Of a DNA stretch of 63,067 nucleotides, positions 12,785 through 50,103 are shown in pieces. Below the pieces are notes generated by a model. That model did not search any database and was not told the origin of the DNA. It saw only the letters and a program-made list of their open reading frames with translations. The position numbers and the translations under genes are program-made. The stretch covers positions 1-63,067 of IMG/VR virus record IMGVR_UViG_3300033808_000012; one strand, written 5' to 3'. This DNA is from a virus (taxonomy: Duplodnaviria; Caudoviricetes). How positions within the stretch are numbered: the first letter of the stretch is position 1; each line of letters begins with the position of its first letter.

Positions 12785-15226
12785 ATGGCGGTTTCCTTCC
12801 GATACGACCCTCCGGGCGCGCAGTTGCGTGCCTTTCGCGTATCCGGCGCGATGTGTCGGGCGCTGATCGGGCCGCTTGGTGGCGGGCGCGAGAAGTGCGC
12901 GGTCTACGATCTGCTGACGCGGAGTATTCTCAGCTCGCAGAAGCGCTGGCGCTGGCTGGTGCTGCGGGCAGACGCGGCGACGCTCGAAGAGCAGACGATC
13001 CCGCTCTGGCATTCGGTCGTTTCAAGCGAGACAGGCGAGTGGGATGCCAGAGCCGGACGGCACGCCTTCAAGGTGCAGACCCGTGAAGGCAAGTTGACGC
13101 ATTTCGATGTGCAGTTTCTGGCACTTGACCGTCCCGAGCATCGGCGGCGGTTCGCTACGCTGGAGGCATCGGGGCTATGGCTCGACGGCGCGCGGGATAT
13201 CGAGAAAGCCGTTTTCGAGCGCTGCCTGGAGATCGCGGGATCATGGCCGCAGGAAGAAGCGGCCATGCCGATGATCCTTTGCACGAGCCTGATGCCGCCC
13301 GCCGATCATTGGTTGGCGCTCGATCCCGAAGTGAAGCTGTTCCGCCAGCCAGGCGGTCGCAGCGCCGAAGCAGAAAACTTCAAGGCCAAGGGCGGCGAAT
13401 TGCCAGCAGGCCATTATGAGCGGCTGGCGAAAGGGCGCAGCGCTGAGTGGGTGCGCGTCAATGTGGACGCGGAATGGTCGGGGCAGGCCGGAACGCCGGA
13501 AGAAATCACCGCGCGGTTGGATCGCCAGAAAGCCGAACGCGAAAAACTCTATTCGTATTATCCCGACGCAGGGCCGCTGCGCCGCGAACTCTACTCCAAA
13601 CACACGGAGTTTTTTGCTGCCGGTAAAAGGCACCAGGAGCGTGCCTTCATCGGCGGCAACCGCACCGGCAAGGCGTTGCTTAATGGCACGCCAGTTTTAA
13701 CGCCAAATGGTTTTCAAGTAATTGAAAGCCTGAAAATTGGTGATACTGTTATTGGAGGCGATGGGAATCCTTGTTACGTAACGGGTGTTTTTCCACAGGG
13801 AATTAGGGAAACGGTGAAGCTCGTTTTTGATGATGGTGCTTCTGTCGTTTGCGACGTTGATCATCTTTGGAAGTGTCGCCAAGGAAAAGAACGATATAAT
13901 GGCGATGAGTGGAAGGTCAGAACGACTAAAGACCTTCTTGCTAAAGGTGCTGCCGAAGGAGATCCGCAGAAGGTAGCCGAGATTCCAGTTTGCTCATCTT
14001 ATATGACACAACGAGAAGTTTTTATGGACCCATACGTATTGGGTTTGATGCTTGGCGACGGCTGCTATACTGGTTCAAGTCCAACTCCTTCTATTTCGTC
14101 CGCTGACCCTGAAATTATTGAATATTTGAATGAACATTACGCAACGCGACATGCGAAAGAGACTAGTCCTTATACCTATTGGATTAAGGGAATGGTTGGA
14201 ACCCTTAAGGGAATGGGTATTTGGGGTATGTATGCTTATGAGAAGTCCATTCCGCGTGACTATTTGCTGAATAGTCGGCCTGTACGATTAGCAATTTTAC
14301 AGGGTTTGATGGATACCGATGGGTATGTTGAAGAAAGCGGTAGCCATACGGAATTTTACACGACATCGCCATATCTTCGGGATGACGTTACATTTCTGGT
14401 GAGATCGCTTGGCGGAAAAGCAAAAAGCGTAGCGAAGACCGGGCATTGGTATAAAGATGGCGAAAGACATGAAGGCCGCGAGGGTTGGCGCATTCATATC
14501 ACGATGCCGATTTGTCCTTTCCGATTAAAACGGAAAGTTGAGCGATGGCATCCATTGATAAAAGTATCCGGCAATCGCCGGATTGTTTTTGCTGAGCGAA
14601 TGAGCGACGGAGAGTGCACCTGCATCTCGGTTGACGGTCCCGATCATACGTTCGTGACCAACGATTTCATCGTCACCCACAATTCATTCTGCAACTGCTA
14701 CGAAGCGACCCTCCACATGACGGGATATTATCCCGAGTGGTGGGAAGGTCGGCGCTTCGATCGCCCGGTAGTGACGTGGGTGGCGGGCGAAGATGGGAAG
14801 GCGGTTCGTGAATCGCTGCAACCTCTGCTATTGGGGCCGAGCGAGGCCTACGGTACGGGGCTTATCCCTGGCGACAAAATTGCGCGTACTGGCTCGGCAC
14901 GCGGCATGGCGGATGCGGTCGATTTCGCGGAAGTTCATCATGTATCTGGCGGGCGAAGCCGGTTGCTGTTCAAGACCTACGAGCAGGGACGCGAGAGCTT
15001 CCAGGCCGCGCAGGTAGATCACATGCTCTTCGATGAAGAGCCGCCGAGGTCGATCTATTCCGAAGGGCTGACCCGGACGATGAGTACCGAACCGGGCAAG
15101 CCCAATGGGATCGTGACTTGCGGTTTTACGCCGCTGAAGGGCATCTCGGAGACTGTGCTGCACTACCTGCCGGGCGGCCGGATGCCGGAGACCGAAGAAT
15201 TACGCATGGCCGCGTGGGGTTGGTGA
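12785..15226 (+). CDS. terL: terminase large subunit, N-terminal part: degenerate ATPase domain fused to a P22-gp2-like ATPase interrupted by an intein
   Basis: GGNRTGK|intein|S Walker A, TGYYPEWWEGRRF, FKTYEQGRESFQ, FDEEPP, FTPLKG. Confidence 0.9.
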   Translation: MAVSFRYDPPGAQLRAFRVSGAMCRALIGPLGGGREKCAVYDLLTRSILSSQKRWRWLVLRADAATLEEQTIPLWHSVVSSETGEWDARAGRHAFKVQTREGKLTHFDVQFLALDRPEHRRRFATLEASGLWLDGARDIEKAVFERCLEIAGSWPQEEAAMPMILCTSLMPPADHWLALDPEVKLFRQPGGRSAEAENFKAKGGELPAGHYERLAKGRSAEWVRVNVDAEWSGQAGTPEEITARLDRQKAEREKLYSYYPDAGPLRRELYSKHTEFFAAGKRHQERAFIGGNRTGKALLNGTPVLTPNGFQVIESLKIGDTVIGGDGNPCYVTGVFPQGIRETVKLVFDDGASVVCDVDHLWKCRQGKERYNGDEWKVRTTKDLLAKGAAEGDPQKVAEIPVCSSYMTQREVFMDPYVLGLMLGDGCYTGSSPTPSISSADPEIIEYLNEHYATRHAKETSPYTYWIKGMVGTLKGMGIWGMYAYEKSIPRDYLLNSRPVRLAILQGLMDTDGYVEESGSHTEFYTTSPYLRDDVTFLVRSLGGKAKSVAKTGHWYKDGERHEGREGWRIHITMPICPFRLKRKVERWHPLIKVSGNRRIVFAERMSDGECTCISVDGPDHTFVTNDFIVTHNSFCNCYEATLHMTGYYPEWWEGRRFDRPVVTWVAGEDGKAVRESLQPLLLGPSEAYGTGLIPGDKIARTGSARGMADAVDFAEVHHVSGGRSRLLFKTYEQGRESFQAAQVDHMLFDEEPPRSIYSEGLTRTMSTEPGKPNGIVTCGFTPLKGISETVLHYLPGGRMPETEELRMAAWGW
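13673..14683 (+). mobile_element. class 3 intein (337 aa) with LAGLIDADG homing endonuclease
   Basis: Ala1 start ALLNGTPVLTP, block B DHLW, block F CTCISV, ends VTHN|S; LGLMLGDG and LQGLMDTDG motifs; lower GC than flanks. Confidence 0.92.
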
Positions 15227-15442: not shown

Positions 15443-16214
15443 ATTCGTTGTCCAAACTTCGTGGCAAGAAACCGCACACCTTTCGGCGGAAGCCAAGGCT
15501 GAGCTTGAGGCATCGTATCTGCCGCATGAGCGCGCCGCTCGCACGATGGGCATCCCGTCGCTTGGCGCGGGCGTCATCTATCCTGTCGCTGAGCAAGAGG
15601 TCGTCGTCCAGCCCTTCGAGCTGCCGAAATATTGGCGGCATGCTTATGGCCTTGATGTGGGCTGGAACCGCACGGCGGCAGTCTGGGGCGCGCTCGATAC
15701 CGAGTCAGATATCCTCTACCTCTATTCCGAGCACTATCGCGGCGATGCCGAGCCTGCTGTGCATGCGCAAGCCATTAAGTCACGCGGCGCGTGGATACCC
15801 GGCGTGATCGATCCTGCATCGCGCGGTCGCACGCAGACCGATGGGCAGTCGCTCCTCAATATCTACCGCTCGCTTGGTCTGACCTTGACCGAGGCGGACA
15901 ATTCGGTGGAGAGCGGCATTTATGACATGTGGACGCGGCTCTCGACGGGACGGCTCAAGGTCTTCTCGACGCTGACCAACTGGCTCGGCGAATATCGGAT
16001 TTATCGGCGCGACGAAAAAGGTCGTGTCGTGAAAGAACACGATCATGCGATGGACGCTTCGCGATATCTCGTAAGATCGGGCTTGGCGCTTGCCTCATTT
16101 CGCCCTGCCAACGAGTGGCGCTCGGCGATCCCGGCGCTTGCCAACCGCAGGCGCGAAAAGGAATGGACGCCGCAAGCCGCGCTTGACGCTGATCGCTATG
16201 GGATGGTGGCGTGA
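15435..16214 (+). CDS. terL: terminase large subunit, C-terminal part (RNase H-like nuclease); probable ATC start
   Basis: GLDVGW, IDPASRGR, HDHAMDASRY; the conserved upstream segment SWQETAHLS..ELEASYLPHERAART is in frame back to ATC 15435. Confidence 0.85.
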   Translation: MTKFVVQTSWQETAHLSAEAKAELEASYLPHERAARTMGIPSLGAGVIYPVAEQEVVVQPFELPKYWRHAYGLDVGWNRTAAVWGALDTESDILYLYSEHYRGDAEPAVHAQAIKSRGAWIPGVIDPASRGRTQTDGQSLLNIYRSLGLTLTEADNSVESGIYDMWTRLSTGRLKVFSTLTNWLGEYRIYRRDEKGRVVKEHDHAMDASRYLVRSGLALASFRPANEWRSAIPALANRRREKEWTPQAALDADRYGMVA

Positions 16215-23265: not shown

Positions 23266-23691
23266 ATGGGCATACCGTCGAACACGCACGCGCCGACAGG
23301 GGCCAATGCGCTTGGCTCGACCGATCTTGCCAATGGCGGTTTTGTCGGCACGTTTACGGCAGCGGCCACTACCAGTCCCTATTATGCTTTTCAGGGCGCG
23401 TTCAATGTTGTCTTCGGTGGCCCGAGCGGTCCAAATGGGACATGGAGCGGATCAATCCAGCTTGAGCGCAGTTTCGACGGCGGCGCGACCTGGTACATCT
23501 GTGGTGTCGGCGGCGGTGGTCAGCAAGCGATCTACAGTACATCAAATCAGGACGTGTCGTTTGTTGCGAGCGAGCCGGAACAAGGCGTGCTCTATCGACT
23601 GCATTGCACAGCGCTTACCGCAGGTACGGTGAATTATCGTATGACCACGACCAGCCCGGCGCCGACCGCTTGGGGCATTCCGACAGCCTAG
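23266..23691 (+). CDS. putative virion beta-sandwich protein
   Basis: LERSFDGGATW Asp-box-like motif, YRL.CTA.T.GT..YR. Confidence 0.65.
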   Translation: MGIPSNTHAPTGANALGSTDLANGGFVGTFTAAATTSPYYAFQGAFNVVFGGPSGPNGTWSGSIQLERSFDGGATWYICGVGGGGQQAIYSTSNQDVSFVASEPEQGVLYRLHCTALTAGTVNYRMTTTSPAPTAWGIPTA

Positions 23692-23700
23692 GGGAGCAAC

Positions 23701-24222
23701 ATGAAACGGCTCTTTGCATTCTTTGGCGCGCTGCTCTTCGCCACGGCGGCTTTCGCGCAGGGCACGGGTCTCACGGGTTTCCAATTCCCGAGTGTGCCGT
23801 GGCAGTCCTATGCGCCAGGGCGTGTTCAATGCGGTTGGCTGAACGGCGCGAACTTCAATACGACGGCAGACCAGAAGATTACGCTGATGGTGCCGACATC
23901 AACGTACATGATCGATCAGATCGTCATCTCGGCACCAAGCGTTTCGATGACGACGGCGGCAGGCGGCTTTTACAGTGCCGCGAGCAAAGGTGGAATTGCT
24001 GTCGTGGCTTCGACCCAGACCTATACAAGTTTGACGACTAATGCCGCCAATACGACAGGTAATGCCATGTTGGCGACTTTGGCAACAGCAGGCAACACGA
24101 CCGAGTTTACGATCCCGACGACCGGTTCTCCGGTCCTTTATCTCTCTTTGACTACAGCGCAAGGGGCGGCTGCCACTGCGAATGTGCGCATATTCTGTCG
24201 CCCGCAATACCCTGTTACCTAG
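23701..24222 (+). CDS. secreted Thr/Ala-rich protein
   Basis: Signal peptide MKRLFAFFGALLFATAAFA|Q; two Cys. Confidence 0.75.
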   Translation: MKRLFAFFGALLFATAAFAQGTGLTGFQFPSVPWQSYAPGRVQCGWLNGANFNTTADQKITLMVPTSTYMIDQIVISAPSVSMTTAAGGFYSAASKGGIAVVASTQTYTSLTTNAANTTGNAMLATLATAGNTTEFTIPTTGSPVLYLSLTTAQGAAATANVRIFCRPQYPVT

Positions 24223-24240
24223 TCAATCCCACGAAGGAGA

Positions 24241-24735
24241 ATGAGCATGCGTAAGTTTCTTGGTGGGGTTGCCGCCGCAGCCCTCATTGCTCTGTCGAGC
24301 GGTGCTCATGCGCAGTTGACGACCGCGCCTACGGCGATCACAACGACCAATCCCTCAACTGATCTCGTGCCGTTTGTTCCAGGCGGTCGCGCCGGGCCGT
24401 CACAGCAATATACGCTACCGAACTATATTGCTGGTGCCCCAGCCTATGTGGATGAAGGCGCAGTCGGCACGGCTTGGTCGTTTACTTTCCCGAACGGCGT
24501 GACTGACTTCATCATCCGGCCAACGGGCACGCTGGCAACGGGGACGATTACCACTGCGCCTAATCCGGTTGACGGTCAGCGCGAATGCTTCCTATCGACG
24601 CAGACGCAAACTGCCATAACGTGGACCGCGAATACGGGACAGACTGTGACGGGCGCGGCGACAGCAGGCGTCGCCAATACGCCGCAGTGCATGGTCTACG
24701 AAGCTCCGGTGCAGACTTGGTATCGCTCACCCTGA
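24241..24735 (+). CDS. secreted Thr-rich protein
   Basis: Signal peptide ..MRKFLGGVAAAALIALSSGAHA|Q; two Cys. Confidence 0.75.
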   Translation: MSMRKFLGGVAAAALIALSSGAHAQLTTAPTAITTTNPSTDLVPFVPGGRAGPSQQYTLPNYIAGAPAYVDEGAVGTAWSFTFPNGVTDFIIRPTGTLATGTITTAPNPVDGQRECFLSTQTQTAITWTANTGQTVTGAATAGVANTPQCMVYEAPVQTWYRSP

Positions 24736-24784: not shown

Positions 24785-25744
24785 ATGGTATCAACTCGCA
24801 TCTGCGCCACGATGGATCGCTGCTGCTTTTGGACTCAGCCTCTTGCTTTGGCTCTTGCCGGATGGGCAGTGCTCTCGCTGCTTTGGTCGCCACAGCCACT
24901 CGACGGAATAGGGGCGCTCTGGCATTGGGCAATCCTTGGCATGGCGTTTCTGATGGGATCGCGCGGGAGCGCTACAATGATCTATCAGGGCGCAGCGATA
25001 GGATTGGCGATCAATTCGGTGGTTGTTCTTACTCACGGACGAGCGGGATTATTCATCAACAAGGACTTTCTCGCCGAGGCAGCATTGCCAGTAGCAGTCT
25101 GGTTGATCTGGACACGTCGTTGGCTGCTGCCGTTCATCCTCCCGTCGCTTTTAATACCGCAATCCAGAGCGGTTTTATTGATCGGCGTGCCGATGCTGCT
25201 TTGGCCGTTCAGCCGCATTGGGGCAACAGTTCTTGCTGTGATGCTGATCTTGATGCTGACAGTCTCGCTCACACTCGTTTGGCCGCTGGACCGCTCGAAA
25301 AATGAGCGATTGGCGATCTGGCAAGATACGCTGCGTGGGGTAACGATTCTTGGGCGCGGCATTGGTCAGTTTTACGGCACCTTCCCAGAAATGGCGGTTC
25401 ACGAGGATACGTCCGCACGACGCCCGCTCCATGCGCACGATGATTTCCTTGAAATCCTCTATGAGCTTGGGCCAATCGGCTTTTGTCTCGCCGCCGCCTT
25501 CATGCTCTCGCTCTTTGGCGCAGGGGACGGCGTTTGGCTCTACGTCTTCCTGGCCGTTGTGCTCGATGCGTTGGTGGCGTTCCCCTTCCAGAATCCCGCT
25601 TCTGGCATCTTGGCGATGGTCGCTGCGGGTGCTCTTTACCGCAATAATCTGCGCGATGGCTCTGCTAGATTTTCGCGCACAGATCATGTTGGCGCGCGGC
25701 ACTTCGCCCTTGGCGGCGGCGCGGGCATGGCCGGTCGATCCTGA
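24785..25744 (+). CDS. O-antigen ligase / O-oligosaccharyltransferase-like membrane protein 1 (Wzy_C)
   Basis: GLFINKDFLAE, QSRAV, ERLAIWQ, G.GIGQF, HAHDDFLE.LYELG.IG, FPFQNP. Confidence 0.8.
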   Translation: MVSTRICATMDRCCFWTQPLALALAGWAVLSLLWSPQPLDGIGALWHWAILGMAFLMGSRGSATMIYQGAAIGLAINSVVVLTHGRAGLFINKDFLAEAALPVAVWLIWTRRWLLPFILPSLLIPQSRAVLLIGVPMLLWPFSRIGATVLAVMLILMLTVSLTLVWPLDRSKNERLAIWQDTLRGVTILGRGIGQFYGTFPEMAVHEDTSARRPLHAHDDFLEILYELGPIGFCLAAAFMLSLFGAGDGVWLYVFLAVVLDALVAFPFQNPASGILAMVAAGALYRNNLRDGSARFSRTDHVGARHFALGGGAGMAGRS

Positions 25745-25908
25745 GTTTCGCCGCATGCTTGTTGAAGGCTCACTCTATGTTCCTGCCGCCGAGGCAAGGG
25801 CGATGCTGGATTATAATATCACCCGCGATCCGCAGGCGCGGGACGCGCGTTGGTTACGTCATTTCTTGAGGCCGTAGCATCTTGGCATCGGTTAACCCCC
25901 TGACCTTG

Positions 25909-25934
25909 GCGGGGCTTCGCAGCCCCGCTCTTTT
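25909..25934 (+). terminator. rho-independent terminator
   Basis: GCGGGGCT-TCGC-AGCCCCGC followed by TCTTTT. Confidence 0.6.
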
Positions 25935-25937
25935 CCG

Positions 25938-45006: not shown

Positions 45007-46848
45007 ATGCGCCGACTTTTATGCTGGCTCATGCCCTTCCTTGCGCTCATTGCTCCTGCTTACGCGCAGGTGCCAAGCGGTGGCGGCATTCCTTACCCAG
45101 TCGTTAACGGAGACTGCCTTATCGGCTCTGGCGGACAGCCAATCTGGGGAAGCTGTTCGGGAGGTAGTGCCGTTAGCAGCGTGACCAATAGTGACGGGAC
45201 GTTGACAATCACGCCGTCATCAGGAGCGGTAGTCGCGTCGCTGGCTTTGGGACATCCTAATACGTGGACAGGAAATCAGACCTATAACGCTAACATCATC
45301 CTTGGAACGGGCGTACTACTTTCGCCAGCAGACGGAATTCAAATCCAAGGTTCAGGATCAGGTGTTTCGCAGTTTCAATCCGCGCTCTCCGGTAGTAGCA
45401 ACAATACCGTTATTAGTCCTGGTGGCGCGAGCACCAACACGCTGACCTACCTAGGGAACGGCGTCTCAGTTACGAATGGACAACTTGCAGAATGGTCTGG
45501 AACTGCTGGGGCACTCGTTAGTGAGACCTTCGCTTCTGCCTGTACCGCGATGACGAATCTTGCCTTTGGTTGCGGCAAAGTCGATGCGAGTACGGTCACG
45601 GAGTCGGCGGGCGTCCTAACCGTAATCGGTGATGACTACTACGTTGCCAATGCTTCCTCGACCGGGACGACCATCAATAAGCTCGCGAAGCTCACGGGAT
45701 CGCCTTCGTCTCAAGCCGTTATCACTTCGCACACTGATCCGCCGGCAAGTGCCACGGCAATTGGTATCGTGACTTCTGGGGCAGGCACGACTGGTACAGC
45801 AATCATCCAATTTAACGGTGTCGCGACCTGCGTGTTCGATGGTGCAGCAGTAGCGGGCCATCTCGTGCAAATGAGCACGGGAACGGATGGCGACTGCACG
45901 GACGCTGGAACGTCGCCTGGAAACGGTCAGGTCATCGGTACGGTGATGGGAACTATCGGGGCAGCGGGCAATGCACCTGTTGCACTTGCCATCGTGCCAA
46001 CGACGGATATTCCAGCTCCATCAGCTAATACGCTCCTTGGTTCCAGCAGCGCCAACAGCCCGAATTGGCTCTCACTCGATACCAATACGATCACCAACTC
46101 ATCGGGTGTCTTTATCGTCGGCTCGTCCTTTGATTGGCCGAATGCTGGATCAACAGGCACGACTTTAGGTAAGCTCGCCAAGTTTACGGGGACGCCCTCA
46201 ACAGCGGTCATTACCTCGCATACAACAGACTCTACCAAATCGGTCGCAGTCGGTGTCGTGGTGGCTGGAGCTGGAACTAGCGGCTCAGCGGAAGTCCTCA
46301 ACGTAGGCATCGCCAACTGCGCCTTTGATGGCGCGACGACAGCAGGGCACGCGGCGCAAGTCAGTTCAGCCACGGATGGCGACTGCACGGACTCAGGCTC
46401 GATCACACCGAACGCAGGTCAGATCGTCGGCGTGATCCTGGGGACAATCGGGGCTGCAGGTAACGCGCCCGTGGCTTTCAATATTCCCTCTGAGGCAACA
46501 TCACCGCTCGCTTACCTCAACGTGCCGAGCCAGCTATATACGGGCGGTATCCATCCGCAGGCTTACGGAAACGGCACTGGAAGCGGTACCACGACAATTG
46601 ACTGCGGCAATGGCCCGATCCAGACGCTTTACAACAACGGCGGTTTCACGCTCGCGATGTCGGCGAATGACGGCTCCTGCGTGGTGCGAATCAATAACGG
46701 TCCCTCCGCAGGAACGATCACCTTCTCGGGATTCTCGGAAGGGTCAAACACGGGCGATTCGCTCAATACAACGAATAACAATTATTTTGATATCGCACTG
46801 ACGCGGATAAACGCGAAGCCGCATTATCTCATCAGTGCGCTCCAATGA
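45007..46848 (+). CDS. tail-fibre-like protein with signal peptide and duplicated ~113-aa domain
   Basis: MRRLLCWLMPFLALIAPAYA|Q; Gly/Ser/Thr-rich; internal repeat. Confidence 0.8.
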   Translation: MRRLLCWLMPFLALIAPAYAQVPSGGGIPYPVVNGDCLIGSGGQPIWGSCSGGSAVSSVTNSDGTLTITPSSGAVVASLALGHPNTWTGNQTYNANIILGTGVLLSPADGIQIQGSGSGVSQFQSALSGSSNNTVISPGGASTNTLTYLGNGVSVTNGQLAEWSGTAGALVSETFASACTAMTNLAFGCGKVDASTVTESAGVLTVIGDDYYVANASSTGTTINKLAKLTGSPSSQAVITSHTDPPASATAIGIVTSGAGTTGTAIIQFNGVATCVFDGAAVAGHLVQMSTGTDGDCTDAGTSPGNGQVIGTVMGTIGAAGNAPVALAIVPTTDIPAPSANTLLGSSSANSPNWLSLDTNTITNSSGVFIVGSSFDWPNAGSTGTTLGKLAKFTGTPSTAVITSHTTDSTKSVAVGVVVAGAGTSGSAEVLNVGIANCAFDGATTAGHAAQVSSATDGDCTDSGSITPNAGQIVGVILGTIGAAGNAPVAFNIPSEATSPLAYLNVPSQLYTGGIHPQAYGNGTGSGTTTIDCGNGPIQTLYNNGGFTLAMSANDGSCVVRINNGPSAGTITFSGFSEGSNTGDSLNTTNNNYFDIALTRINAKPHYLISALQ

Positions 46849-47699
46849 TCCGTCGCGTCCTCATAGCGGCTCTGGCCGCGCTTGCCTGCGGTATTGCGCT
46901 CGTCGCGTTCAACCCATCGCCGATGGCGCAGTGGTCGCCACCCGCGATGCTGTCGGCGATGCCCACGCCTGCGTCTGGTTGTTCTCAAGCGACGACCTTC
47001 CTCGCACGCGGCACTTTCGACGGAACCCATACGTCAGCTCTAACTACGGCAATCTGCGGATTTGTCGCTGATGGAACATGGACGGGTTTCGACTTTCTTT
47101 ATTTTTTGGCTAATCAAACTGTAGCTGATGCAAAACTAAATCTGGTTTCCACTTCATTTACTATTAGCCCAAACGGCAGCCCTACATTCACAGCCGATCG
47201 AGGATATTCCGGCCTCGATGCGAGCACAGACACCCTCAGCACTGGACTCAATTCGGGGGCAGGCAGCAACGCTACTCAGAACAGCGCTAGCATCGGCATT
47301 TGGGTAGGAACATCCAGTACAGGAGCCGATCACTATGGCGCTTATGTCGGCGACGGTGGGGAATTCTGGCTCGATTATGACGAGTTGGGCAACGGTACAG
47401 GCGAGATATTTGACTCGCAAGCCCTTACAACGACGGGAGAACCGCCAACAGGAACATTAGTTTCGATTAACAGAAGTGGATCGGCGGCGCGCCAAATCTA
47501 TCAAGGTGGCACTTCAAACAAAAGCGACACAAGAGCATCCACCACACCTGGCGATGTCGCTATTTTAATTCGCAATGAGTTCAGCAGAACTGGTGTTGTT
47601 GTTGCGGCGGCTTTTGTAGGACGGTCGTTCAGTTCTACCGAGCAAGCAAACATCTACTCTCGGATAAATACTTATCTTGCGGCGGTTGGCGGCCAATGA
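46845..47699 (+). CDS. secreted lectin/LamG-like virion-type protein
   Basis: N-terminal signal sequence; GTWTGFDFLYFLA, PTFTADRGY. Confidence 0.7.
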   Translation: MIRRVLIAALAALACGIALVAFNPSPMAQWSPPAMLSAMPTPASGCSQATTFLARGTFDGTHTSALTTAICGFVADGTWTGFDFLYFLANQTVADAKLNLVSTSFTISPNGSPTFTADRGYSGLDASTDTLSTGLNSGAGSNATQNSASIGIWVGTSSTGADHYGAYVGDGGEFWLDYDELGNGTGEIFDSQALTTTGEPPTGTLVSINRSGSAARQIYQGGTSNKSDTRASTTPGDVAILIRNEFSRTGVVVAAAFVGRSFSSTEQANIYSRINTYLAAVGGQ

Positions 47700-48889
47700 A
47701 TTTGAAAATAAACGTGCGCAAGCCGGTGTTGGCTATCGCGTTTGTTTTCCTCGGATATTTCCTCTCGCTGAGCACGGTGCCCCGTTCCGAGGCGATGATT
47801 GGTGGGCTGATGCCGCCATCCGGTCTCTGTGCAGCAGATCCCTATTCAGGCCAAGATGGCTGCGCTGGGGCTAATCCTAATTCGACAAAGCAGATCGCCT
47901 CGCTCCTCAACGGGTATACGGCGACACCAGCTTGGTGGTCGGCGGGGGTTAAGTACCCAGTCTCTTATTACACTCCGCTTGCATCGCTCACAGAATGCAA
48001 TAGCTCATCCTGCCCCGGCCTGCCTGCCTGTGCGGCGACAGGAAGTTCTGGCGGTAATAATTATGTCCTAATCGCCAGCGCGCCTTGTACCCTCTCGGGC
48101 TATCATTTCGATGGCGTCTGCGTCGGTTGGAATGTCAGCAGCGGCATTGTCACGATCACTGATAATTTGTTTACAGTAAGCGCGTCATGCAATCCGGCAG
48201 GCGAAAACTATATCGGATACCCGAATGCTGGGAGCGAGACCGGCACACAGAATGTTATTTTCACTTTTAACGAGATTGATCAAACATACACTCAAAACGA
48301 CAGTTCTAATGTATCATTTGTCGCTACATTTGACGGTGGTACTGCAACAGTAGAATACAATTGGGCACATAACGGATATGGGAATGTGTTCCGATTTGAC
48401 TGCGGTAATAGCAGTTGCTCGGCAACAGAAGCATTTAATTTAATTACGGATTTCGGCGGATCAACGTCGCATTCTGACGGACAATATTTCGATGGATCGA
48501 GCGGAACGGCCTACGCGATCAATATCAACTACAACACGATCTCTTATCAAAATCCCAGCACGGCGGCGGGAACAAGTCCGCTAAACCCCGTCTCCCAGAT
48601 CAGCGCAAACCTCATTCAAGTCGCCGCGAACATTGAGAACAATACAGTTATCGTAAACACAAGCGGTGGCCCAGGAGCGTGGGGCGGCGCGACGGTCTAT
48701 TGCTGTGCGACTGGTTACGGGCCGAGCGGAACAAACATCACCAACAACTTCGTGGATAACCGAGGCCAATTGGAATTCATGTACTCAAACGCTACCTTCG
48801 GTGCGGTATCATCTACTTGTCATGGCAACGTCAACATGAACGACGGAACGACGATCACGCAGACGCTCGCGGCATTTAGTTGCAATTAG
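47696..48889 (+). CDS. secreted Cys-rich parallel beta-helix-like protein (tailspike/depolymerase-like)
   Basis: N-terminal hydrophobic signal; repeated I.NN/YN.I Asn-ladder motifs; many Cys. Confidence 0.65.
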   Translation: MNLKINVRKPVLAIAFVFLGYFLSLSTVPRSEAMIGGLMPPSGLCAADPYSGQDGCAGANPNSTKQIASLLNGYTATPAWWSAGVKYPVSYYTPLASLTECNSSSCPGLPACAATGSSGGNNYVLIASAPCTLSGYHFDGVCVGWNVSSGIVTITDNLFTVSASCNPAGENYIGYPNAGSETGTQNVIFTFNEIDQTYTQNDSSNVSFVATFDGGTATVEYNWAHNGYGNVFRFDCGNSSCSATEAFNLITDFGGSTSHSDGQYFDGSSGTAYAININYNTISYQNPSTAAGTSPLNPVSQISANLIQVAANIENNTVIVNTSGGPGAWGGATVYCCATGYGPSGTNITNNFVDNRGQLEFMYSNATFGAVSSTCHGNVNMNDGTTITQTLAAFSCN

Positions 48890-49930
48890 ATGGCGTTCCT
48901 CGGTTTCGTTCTCACCATCGCCGTCCATCCCTGGCTGATCGGCGGCTTCGTCACGCTGCGCTGGCTGGTGCTGCTTGGTGCTGTACCGGCACTGATGGCG
49001 ATGCAGGAGCGCGGCGTTCGTCTGGGATGGGAGTGGACAATCGTCCTCGCTTGGGGCGCTGCGAGCCTCCTCTGGGCACCGAACGCAGCACTTGGGGCTG
49101 ACAAGCTCCTGCATCTCGCGATCCTGTTCCTCCTGTTCAATCTCGGCGGCTCACGCGATCTGGCACAGGGCATGTGCTGGGGGATGATCGTCAATGCCCT
49201 AGTCTGCGTGATCCAGCTTTTCGGCTACTGGCCGGGGCCGTCGATCATCCACAGCGTACCTGGCGGCCTTTACCTCAACCGCAACATGATGGCGGAGATC
49301 GCGGGGCCGCTTGCGGTGTGGGCTGTGGCACAGCGTCAATGGAAGTGGAGCATTGGGCCTGTCGCTTGTATGATCCTCGCGCCTGATCGAGCGGCTATTG
49401 TTGCGGTCGGCGTGCTGATCGCGGCATGGCGGAAGCGCTGGGCATGGCTCTCGCTGATCGCGCTTGGCATCGGCTTTGCTGCGCTCACCTATTTCAAGGG
49501 CATTGAGAGCTTCGGCGAACGCGCGATCATCTGGCGGCATGCTTGGGAGGAAATATCGCTCTGGGGCAATGGCCTCGGAGCATTCCGGGTCAACTGGCCG
49601 CATTTGGAGTATGTTCATTGCGATCCGATGGAGTTCGTCTATGAGCTTGGGATCGGTGCACTCCCGCTGGTCTGGTTGGTCTGGCGCGGCTTCCGAGGCG
49701 ATGGAGCGCTGGCGACAAAACTGGCCTTTGCTGCGCTGCTTGTCGAAAGCCTATTCAGCTTCCCGTTCCAACTCCCGTCCTCAGCAGCCCTTGGAGCGAG
49801 CTTGTTGGGCGATCTTTACCGTGCTCGCGAGCCTCTACGGGTGGCAGAGCCTCAACGGCGAGCTGCAACTGCACGATCTCCAAACCGCCGAACCGCACAG
49901 TTGGGCTATGCGCGCCGTCGCGCTTTCTGA
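48890..49930 (+). CDS. O-antigen ligase / O-oligosaccharyltransferase-like membrane protein 2 (Wzy_C)
   Basis: GLYLNRNMMAE, DRAA, ERAIIWR, GNGLGAF, YVHCDPME.VYELG.G, FPFQLP. Confidence 0.8.
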   Translation: MAFLGFVLTIAVHPWLIGGFVTLRWLVLLGAVPALMAMQERGVRLGWEWTIVLAWGAASLLWAPNAALGADKLLHLAILFLLFNLGGSRDLAQGMCWGMIVNALVCVIQLFGYWPGPSIIHSVPGGLYLNRNMMAEIAGPLAVWAVAQRQWKWSIGPVACMILAPDRAAIVAVGVLIAAWRKRWAWLSLIALGIGFAALTYFKGIESFGERAIIWRHAWEEISLWGNGLGAFRVNWPHLEYVHCDPMEFVYELGIGALPLVWLVWRGFRGDGALATKLAFAALLVESLFSFPFQLPSSAALGASLLGDLYRAREPLRVAEPQRRAATARSPNRRTAQLGYARRRAF

Positions 49931-50103
49931 GGATTGGCCGTTTGATCCCTATCTGTGGAATTTGAAAGAAGCGATTGGACGAGCGATAATAAAAGCCGAG
50001 AGCCGAAATTCACGCTAAATTCACGCTTAATTAACGCGCGTATCCCAGTTACATCTTGTTACAATAGGAGGCGAATATACCATCTATTGAGCCAGATGAT
50101 CCG

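Follow-up and report, generated by a model that had tools for sequence, protein, structure and literature searches.

Two ligase-like genes of a podovirus-like phage are probably overlapped at their 3' ends by separate +1-frame genes encoding a TPR-like membrane protein

The ligase-like loci and their +1 reading frames

The window studied here, meaning the whole stretch of DNA that was analysed, is the virus record IMGVR_UViG_3300033808_000012 (Caudoviricetes), which is complete, spans 63,067 bp and carries direct terminal repeats. It contains two paralogous ligase-like genes, gene 1 and gene 2, and through the 3' end of each runs a second open reading frame (ORF), shifted by +1 relative to the ligase frame (frame 0), which continues past the ligase stop codon. 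The features of the two loci are collected in Table 1. A first-pass annotation of the sequence had pointed to these +1 frames as encoding a transmembrane (TM) helix and a domain with a WP.DP motif, and the two peptides indeed read as quoted there. W1 and W2 denote the window loci of gene 1 and gene 2, and L-numbers (e.g. L047) denote the loci fetched from relatives.

Table 1. Features of the two ligase-like loci, with window positions
Feature	Position	Strand	Basis
Ligase-like gene 1 (Wzy_C family), 319 aa, frame 0	24785..25744	+	Pfam PF04932, family homologs, AlphaFold2 model
Partner gene 1, upstream open +1 part; candidate starts ATG 25461, TTG 25467, ATG 25566	25461..25622	+	open frame, family stop depletion
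Partner gene 1, conserved part, frame +1: L-R anchor, TM helix, four short TPR-like helices, stop	25623..25877	+	family profile score 56, identity to L047, AlphaFold2 model
TCTTTACCG, proposed shift site, gene 1	25633..25641	+	sequence match; CTT-T at this codon in 8/36 family sequences
Terminator-like hairpin, 9-bp GC-rich stem then UCUUUUCC	25908..25936	+	folding
Ligase-like gene 2, 346 aa, frame 0, paralog of gene 1	48890..49930	+	identity to gene 1, ligase profile
Partner gene 2, upstream open +1 part; candidate starts ATG 49641, TTG 49647, ATG 49701, TTG 49791	49641..49802	+	open frame
Partner gene 2, conserved part, frame +1: TM helix, shorter WPFDP helical domain, stop	49803..50018	+	family profile score 26
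TCTTTACCG, proposed shift site, gene 2	49813..49821	+	sequence match

Gene 1 belongs to the Wzy_C superfamily as judged by its match to Pfam PF04932 (E 3.4e-9; 37.1 bits, cut-off 31.7). Gene 2 gave no direct Pfam match; it scores 317 on the ligase family profile and is 29% identical to gene 1 (E 2e-18), the alignment stopping exactly at LYR in the sequence G-(A/D)-L-Y-R. Both products appear as polytopic membrane proteins and carry the loop motif H.H(N/D)(D/E).LE ahead of the last three helices, in the form HAHDDFLE in gene 1 and YVHCDPME in gene 2. The family profile also matches WaaL of Cupriavidus metallidurans (7tpg_B) over the catalytic loop region (E 6.5e-6), a distant likeness restricted to about 80 residues. 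By their sequence these phage Wzy_C enzymes may be ligases, polymerases or protein glycosylases, and "ligase-like" is used here as a family label. The last conserved ligase residues in gene 1 are an invariant Ala-Gly (codons 281–282), and the tail beyond them is unconserved. Neither ligase and neither +1 partner has a family in PHROGs.

Frame 0 had been described in the first-pass annotation as trailing into an Arg-rich tail of low information, and this description holds. The tails after LYR, of 33 residues in gene 1 and 35 residues in gene 2, have no mutual similarity, and in the AlphaFold2 model of gene 1, which is helical (predicted template modelling score, pTM, 0.79; overall predicted local distance difference test, pLDDT, 78.9), residues 295–319 have a pLDDT below 50.

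A conserved protein family in the +1 frame

An exhaustive HMMER search with gene 1 returned 1083 homologs. Among the best 150 of these the match to gene 1 ends mostly at residues 283–288, and an Arg-rich tail of variable length lies beyond. The DNA of related loci was obtained by alignment-guided scans, which gave 27 viral, 15 genome and 34 metagenome loci; together with L003 this made 77 fetched loci, and 79 with W1 and W2. Alignment-based scans were needed, as a word-based search with the read-through form of ligase and +1 frame gave 2 proteins and single-protein scans of viral contigs gave 1 and 0 loci. The read-through form was built by decoding TACC as Tyr; decoding CTTT as Leu was unusable, since earlier in-frame CTTT codons shift the frame first. 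The genome contig scan provided only distant ligase relatives, all without the +1 domain.

A purpose-built profile of the +1 domain matched 45 of the 79 loci (18 of the matching sequences were used to build it and thus match by construction), and at 44 of these 45 loci the match follows the ligase immediately and is in the +1 frame. As several of the metagenome loci are duplicates of viral contigs, the number of distinct +1-domain sequences is 36. Gene callers had already called eight stand-alone ORFs for the +1 domain. No in-frame ligase fusion occurs among the 45 loci with a profile match, and none of the best 150 of the 1083 ligase homologs matches the +1-domain profile; a fused form was likewise not found among longer proteins, which is weak evidence by the search's own grading.

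In almost all of the close relatives a +1 protein can be recognised behind the ligase. The domain has a constant order of elements: an [LW]-R-[AV] anchor, one hydrophobic TM helix, A-[ED], and two to three tetratricopeptide repeat (TPR)-like repeats with A..(F/Y/W)P(L/F/V)D..(F/Y)R and a second ...DP... motif, often followed by more repeats. Compared directly, the two +1 peptides of the window match weakly (E 0.022 over WP.DP). Each matches the family profile, on which the read-through form of gene 2 (P0002) scores 16.5 bits (E 6.7e-5). The +1 peptide of W1 is 39% identical to that of L047 (E 2e-16), and the frame-0 tails over the same DNA gave no alignment. Modelled with AlphaFold2 from 31 aligned sequences, the W1 peptide forms one long and four short helices with high confidence (pLDDT 96.1, pTM 0.80). 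The top Foldseek matches to this model are mostly TPR proteins (MamA, NlpI, YbgF), with a best E value of 0.44 and none at or below 0.001. The +1 peptide of L015 matches Pfam TPR_19 (E 6.1e-8; 33.3 bits, cut-off 25), four other relatives have sub-threshold TPR matches, W2 is far below threshold (TPR_Rlf, E 0.29), and W1 has no Pfam match at E values up to 1. Because of the family profile, the Pfam match, the predicted fold, the alignment of W1 with L047 in the +1 frame only and the low pLDDT of the tail, we conclude that the +1 domain is a genuine conserved protein and that the frame-0 tail is no conserved protein segment.

Many homologs carry the motif CRDR..LRD....GRMALR in their frame-0 tails, and we considered whether it marks a real frame-0 tail. 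This was rejected: the positions that alternate between the dissimilar Gly and Arg in frame 0 alternate between similar residues in frame +1 (Ala/Gly, Glu/Asp, Tyr/Phe), so the motif is a shadow of the +1 protein.

A few loci depart from the common arrangement. The 45th profile match is an ORF upstream of a ligase gene (L062:1-630 and L062:661-1830), which suggests that ligase-partner modules can stand in tandem, compare the two modules in the window. L048 has a stop codon (near 1525) inside the +1 membrane helix where the near-identical L049 (2330-2710) has Ser, its ligase frame being intact; either the partner gene is broken or the stop is a sequencing error. At L003 (3171-3626) a -1-frame ORF with a basic stretch, a hydrophobic helix and NPWDW overlaps a more distant homolog of the ligase and ends exactly at the ATG of the next gene (3627). 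To the eye this ORF and the +1 ORF of L022 resemble the family, with a membrane helix followed by ..P.D.., and each was tried as a member; hhalign gave a probability of 1.2% for each, and they were not counted.

Selection on the +1 frame begins upstream of the junction

We next consider where constraint passes from one frame to the other. Codon-phase entropy in the 36 sequences shows that the third positions of frame 0 are the most variable up to codon -1 relative to the junction, and that the +1-frame pattern holds from codon 0/1 on. The third base of the Ala codon (GCG) before the invariant Gly has an entropy of 0.67 bits, compared with about 1.7–1.9 bits at neighbouring third positions. This low-entropy base yields a +1-frame Arg in 28 of the 36 sequences, and the Arg lies upstream of CTT-TAC. 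As these results demonstrate, it takes about three codons, at the invariant Ala-Gly of the ligase, for selection to leave frame 0 and take hold in frame +1.

Stop codons in the +1 frame were counted against 300 synonymous-codon shuffles, using the 31 loci that remained after removal of 5 near-duplicates (L007, L049, L056, L066 and L070). Over the 20 codons upstream of the junction there were no +1 stops against 14.0 expected (standard deviation 3.1), and over codons -50 to -20 there were 13 against 31.6 expected (standard deviation 4.6); in neither region were the counts as low in any of the 300 shuffles. When counted in 10-codon bins, the depletion begins at about codon -50. Observed and expected +1 stops were about equal in four control regions further upstream, and the +2 frame had no comparable depletion over the last 50 codons; these matched controls speak against a method artefact. 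In the family, translation of the +1 frame has therefore probably begun before the supposed shift site is reached. An open +1 frame further upstream would be needed for translation from an upstream start, but not for a frameshift at the junction.

Candidate start codons of the partner genes

Gene 1 has an open +1 frame from 25344, and GTG 25629 lies just inside the conserved part of its partner. Among the candidates for gene 2, ATG 49641 has a GGAG 7 nt upstream. Depending on the start used, ligase and partner would overlap by 179–284 nt at gene 1 and by 230–290 nt at gene 2.

The commonest +1 start codons in the family stand at codon -54 (11 of 31 loci) and codon -52 (13 of 31), and they arise from the codons for the conserved ligase residues Y-E-L-G (TAT GAG CTT GG): where the Leu of E-L-G is CTT and is followed by G, a +1 TTG results at codon -52. 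This Leu is CTT in 12 of 21 loci, compared with 15.7% CTT among all Leu codons of these genes. At the Tyr codon of the same motif, the ratio of TAT to TAC (11:4) is not clearly off the background (119:102). The four loci in which the +1 frame opens latest, at codons -20 to -24 (L014, L015, L052 and L057), all have GGAGG-N6-TTG with the TTG at codon -16.

Weighing of the possible readings

Taken together, we think it likely that a separate, independently initiated gene in the +1 frame overlaps the 3' end of each ligase-like gene. The first-pass annotation had left a choice between programmed +1 frameshifting and an overlapping partner gene, either of them conserved. The partner gene agrees with the position of the domain in the profile-matching loci and with the depletion of upstream +1 stops; conserved frameshifting disagrees with the same depletion, with the absence of fusions from the proteins and loci searched and with the variability of the site itself. 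Of the homolog comparison proposed there, the conservation of the frame switch was borne out and that of CTTT was not. Initiation at an upstream ATG or TTG, which had been named as a finding that would tell against a frameshift, is matched at the family level by the 20–50 codons cleared of stops.

However, it should be underlined that several observations weigh against an independent overlapping gene. No start-codon position is conserved family-wide, and the starts in the window remain candidates. A Shine-Dalgarno (SD) core is present within 25 nt of only 13 of the 39 putative plus-strand gene starts examined in this phage, which suggests that the host or the phage relies weakly on SD-led initiation; because most genes lack such a motif, it is useless for choosing among the starts in the window. 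Two loci with DNA downstream of the ligase (L074 and L076) have no match to the +1-domain profile, and L022 and L069 have a +1 ORF with a hydrophobic start for which homology to the +1 family is not detectable; at these four loci the partner may be absent or diverged. The conserved +1 Arg is missing from W2 and L047. Kinship among the loci means that the shuffle statistics overstate independence. Finally, upstream openness is unremarkable in W1 and W2 taken alone, the probability of finding no stop by shuffling being 0.23 (93 codons) and 0.16 (115 codons), respectively, so that the argument for an independent start rests at the family level.

This last point leaves room, in the window's own two genes, for the reading that survives second best: that the Leu tRNA slips from CUU to UUU as in prfB and fuses the ligase to the TM/TPR-like domain, at least in W1, W2 and L047. 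We regard this as unlikely. The first-pass annotation had drawn attention to the 9-mer TCTTTACCG at homologous codons of the two paralogs, and a search of the window confirmed it: these are the only two copies, against 0.28 expected, and 3 of 100 shuffles gave two. CTT TAC is read in frame at codons 284–285 of gene 1 (G-A-L-Y-R) and codons 309–310 of gene 2 (G-D-L-Y-R), and the closest relative, L047, also has CTTTACC. The identity of the paralogs over 9 nt in genes that otherwise differ so widely has another explanation, because L-Y-R in frame 0 and F-T-(A/V) in frame +1 together fix CTTTACCG almost completely. Across the family, 28 of the 36 distinct sequences lack CTT-T at this codon and retain the same +1 domain, and CTTTACC stands at the junction in W1, W2 and L047 only, the others reading GCT GCT, CTG TGT and similar. 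The 7-mer CTTTACC is also found in frame at codons 127–128 of gene 2 (window 49268-49274), which counts against a special site, as a slip there would truncate the ligase.

The frameshift site of prfB, the gene for release factor 2 (RF2), combines CUU-U with an SD-like stimulator in a set layout. W1 and W2 share with it the CUU-U at the proposed P site. In W1 a G-rich, SD-like GGGTG ends 2 nt before CTT in a prfB-like layout, a further point on the side of frameshifting; W2 has GGGCG only. GCGGG is conserved in the family, yet the same bases are also read as Ala-Gly in frame 0 and as Arg in frame +1. Three features of prfB are missing here, namely a slow A-site codon, conservation of the site and a +1 frame needed only downstream. 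The A-site codon TAC is neither a stop nor rare in the ligase genes of the family (TAC 102, TAT 119), across the family the +1 constraint begins upstream of the site with [LW]-R, and the +1 frame is kept open for 20–50 codons before it. The 80 nt downstream fold no better than shuffled sequences (z +0.87 and +1.19). The unconserved and poorly modelled frame-0 tail would suit a frameshift, but no in-frame fusion was found among the homologs and loci searched, and in a fused product no loop would separate the last helix of the ligase from the hydrophobic helix that follows. A combination of the two readings also seems improbable to us: in W1, W2 and L047 the overlapping gene may have gained a prfB-like CUU-U slip site, with the SD-like GGGUG in W1 and a sense codon in the A site, which would give a free TPR-like subunit as well as a ligase-TPR fusion.

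Still less probable is entry into the +1 frame further upstream by some other non-standard route, either a shift near Y-E-L-G (GAG CTT GG) or internal initiation combined with low-level shifting. The stop depletion does set in just past the YELG codons, about 50 codons upstream, and the enrichment of CTT at the YELG Leu could serve slippage as well as a TTG start. On the other hand, four loci have +1 stops at -20 to -24 and must therefore enter the frame after these, a shift at -52 would swap the three conserved last helices of the ligase for unconstrained sequence rich in Ser, Arg and Pro, and the ATG and TTG codons at -54 and -52 provide a simpler account. That nothing functional is present, the +1 frame being a chance open frame in GC-rich DNA or the result of a one-base assembly error splitting a continuous ligase-TPR gene, is very hard to maintain: long alternative-frame ORFs are common at 56–58% GC and the window's two +1 peptides alone are only weakly alike, but the same +1 offset recurs in 36 distinct sequences on many independent contigs, the conservation is specific to the +1 frame, one relative has a Pfam TPR match and the W1 model is of high confidence, and no continuous ligase-TPR version was found among the best 150 homologs or among longer proteins.

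A model for the probable overlapping gene

If each partner is an independent overlapping gene, translation of the +1 frame would begin within the ligase gene: at the ATG or TTG 54 or 52 codons upstream in most relatives, at the TTG 16 codons upstream behind GGAGG in others, and in the window perhaps at ATG 25461 or 25566 and at ATG 49641 or 49701. The resulting bitopic protein would have about 100–140 residues, and its N-terminal tail, the sequence of which is dictated by the ligase frame, would be free to vary. With an Arg ahead of the helix and an acidic residue behind it, the positive-inside rule suggests an N-in, C-out orientation; the TPR-like domain would then lie in the periplasm, the compartment in which Wzy_C enzymes act. 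The ligase itself would run on in frame 0 into the unconserved Arg-rich tail until a chance stop.

The small protein may sit against the ligase in the membrane as the second subunit of a phage enzyme that modifies surface glycans. Complex prediction for ligase residues 1–290 and the +1 peptide gave a score of 0.55 (median of 3 runs), compared with 0.00 for the best of three controls, which is a weak signal. Of 80 solved complexes 58 reached the mark, as did 2 of 110 mismatched pairs; those that reached it with scores of 0.60 or below were only 7 of the 80, together with both passing mismatches. Contacts agreed by at least 97% among the runs, and the pLDDT of the partner was at least 79. The role in surface-glycan modification is suggested by the family membership of the ligase-like genes.

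Genome setting

PHROGs matches give the genome a podovirus-like layout, with primase/helicase, terminase, portal, tail, internal virion proteins and endolysin. Three small ORFs without a PHROG family precede gene 1 (23266-24735), and two of them begin signal-peptide-like. Gene 2 has tail-fibre-like genes before it and lysis genes after it; the region immediately before it (45007-48889) holds three larger tail-region ORFs, of which only 46845-47696 matches a PHROG, one with unknown function.

The hairpin after partner gene 1 lies 31 nt past the +1 stop. Its predicted folding energy of -20.1 kcal/mol is modest relative to shuffled sequences (z -1.84; 7 of 200 shuffles fold as well), and a scan for consensus terminators called nothing after gene 1, this hairpin included. 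Elsewhere in the genome, an 813-residue protein (12785-15223) matches terminase large subunit, primase and P-loop PHROGs and is followed by a separate 222-residue ORF (15546-16211) that also matches terminase large subunit; the two may represent a split or unusual terminase.

Discussion

The closest known layout is that of the overlapped phage spanins (lambda Rz/Rz1, P2 type). According to the excerpt of PMC6139136, the start of the second spanin gene lies within the first gene and in another frame, in many cases +1, and in the overlapped form the second gene runs past the end of the first; the products are complex-forming envelope proteins, and the second gene is usually missed or mis-started by gene callers. 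The ligase and its partner share with these pairs the overlapped, shifted-frame layout and the extension past the stop, the start inside the ligase gene being putative here. They differ in that the proteins are unrelated (here a Wzy_C enzyme and a TPR-like bitopic protein), that there is no lysis role, and that the gene 1 pair lies far from the lysis genes. Only the +1 frame is seen in the ligase-partner family, whereas the same excerpt of PMC6139136 gives 116 spanin cases in the -1 frame. The functional parts of ligase and partner barely overlap, each having an unconstrained extension over the functional part of the other.

A functional parallel may be drawn with Pseudomonas phage D3. Its inhibitor Iap is a single-helix peptide of very few residues, and the coding sequence lies upstream of the polymerase gene. 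The partner described here, with its TPR-like domain, would be about 100–140 residues long, and its reading frame overlaps the enzyme gene at the 3' end. In the excerpt of PMC4815439, the serotype-converting unit of D3 consists of a Wzy-type polymerase (Wzy-beta) and the small inhibitor Iap. The likeness, as far as that excerpt goes, is thus one of function only, a phage-borne Wzy-type membrane enzyme together with a small phage protein acting on the O-antigen machinery, and a serotype-conversion function for the present pair is conjectural. A narrow full-text literature search, which included an excerpt of PMC12220298, returned no description of such a ligase partner.

With regard to gene annotation, the ligase-partner pairs show how gene callers come to assign a meaningless Arg-rich tail to the ligase and to truncate or miss the partner. 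They also call for caution, since dual coding may by itself give rise to a common "slippery" motif where the frames switch, without any frameshift signal. The two loci would at the same time be a clean case of a long same-strand overlap (about 180–290 nt in the window) in which the functional parts abut and the dispensable extensions overlap.

Single-chain Wzy_C proteins with C-terminal TPR repeats exist. The present results add to the phage-borne Wzy_C enzymes a conserved and mostly unannotated family of small membrane proteins, and they suggest that these enzymes may be two-subunit machines with a periplasmic TPR-like module, a view that bears on how phages remodel the surface glycans of their hosts.

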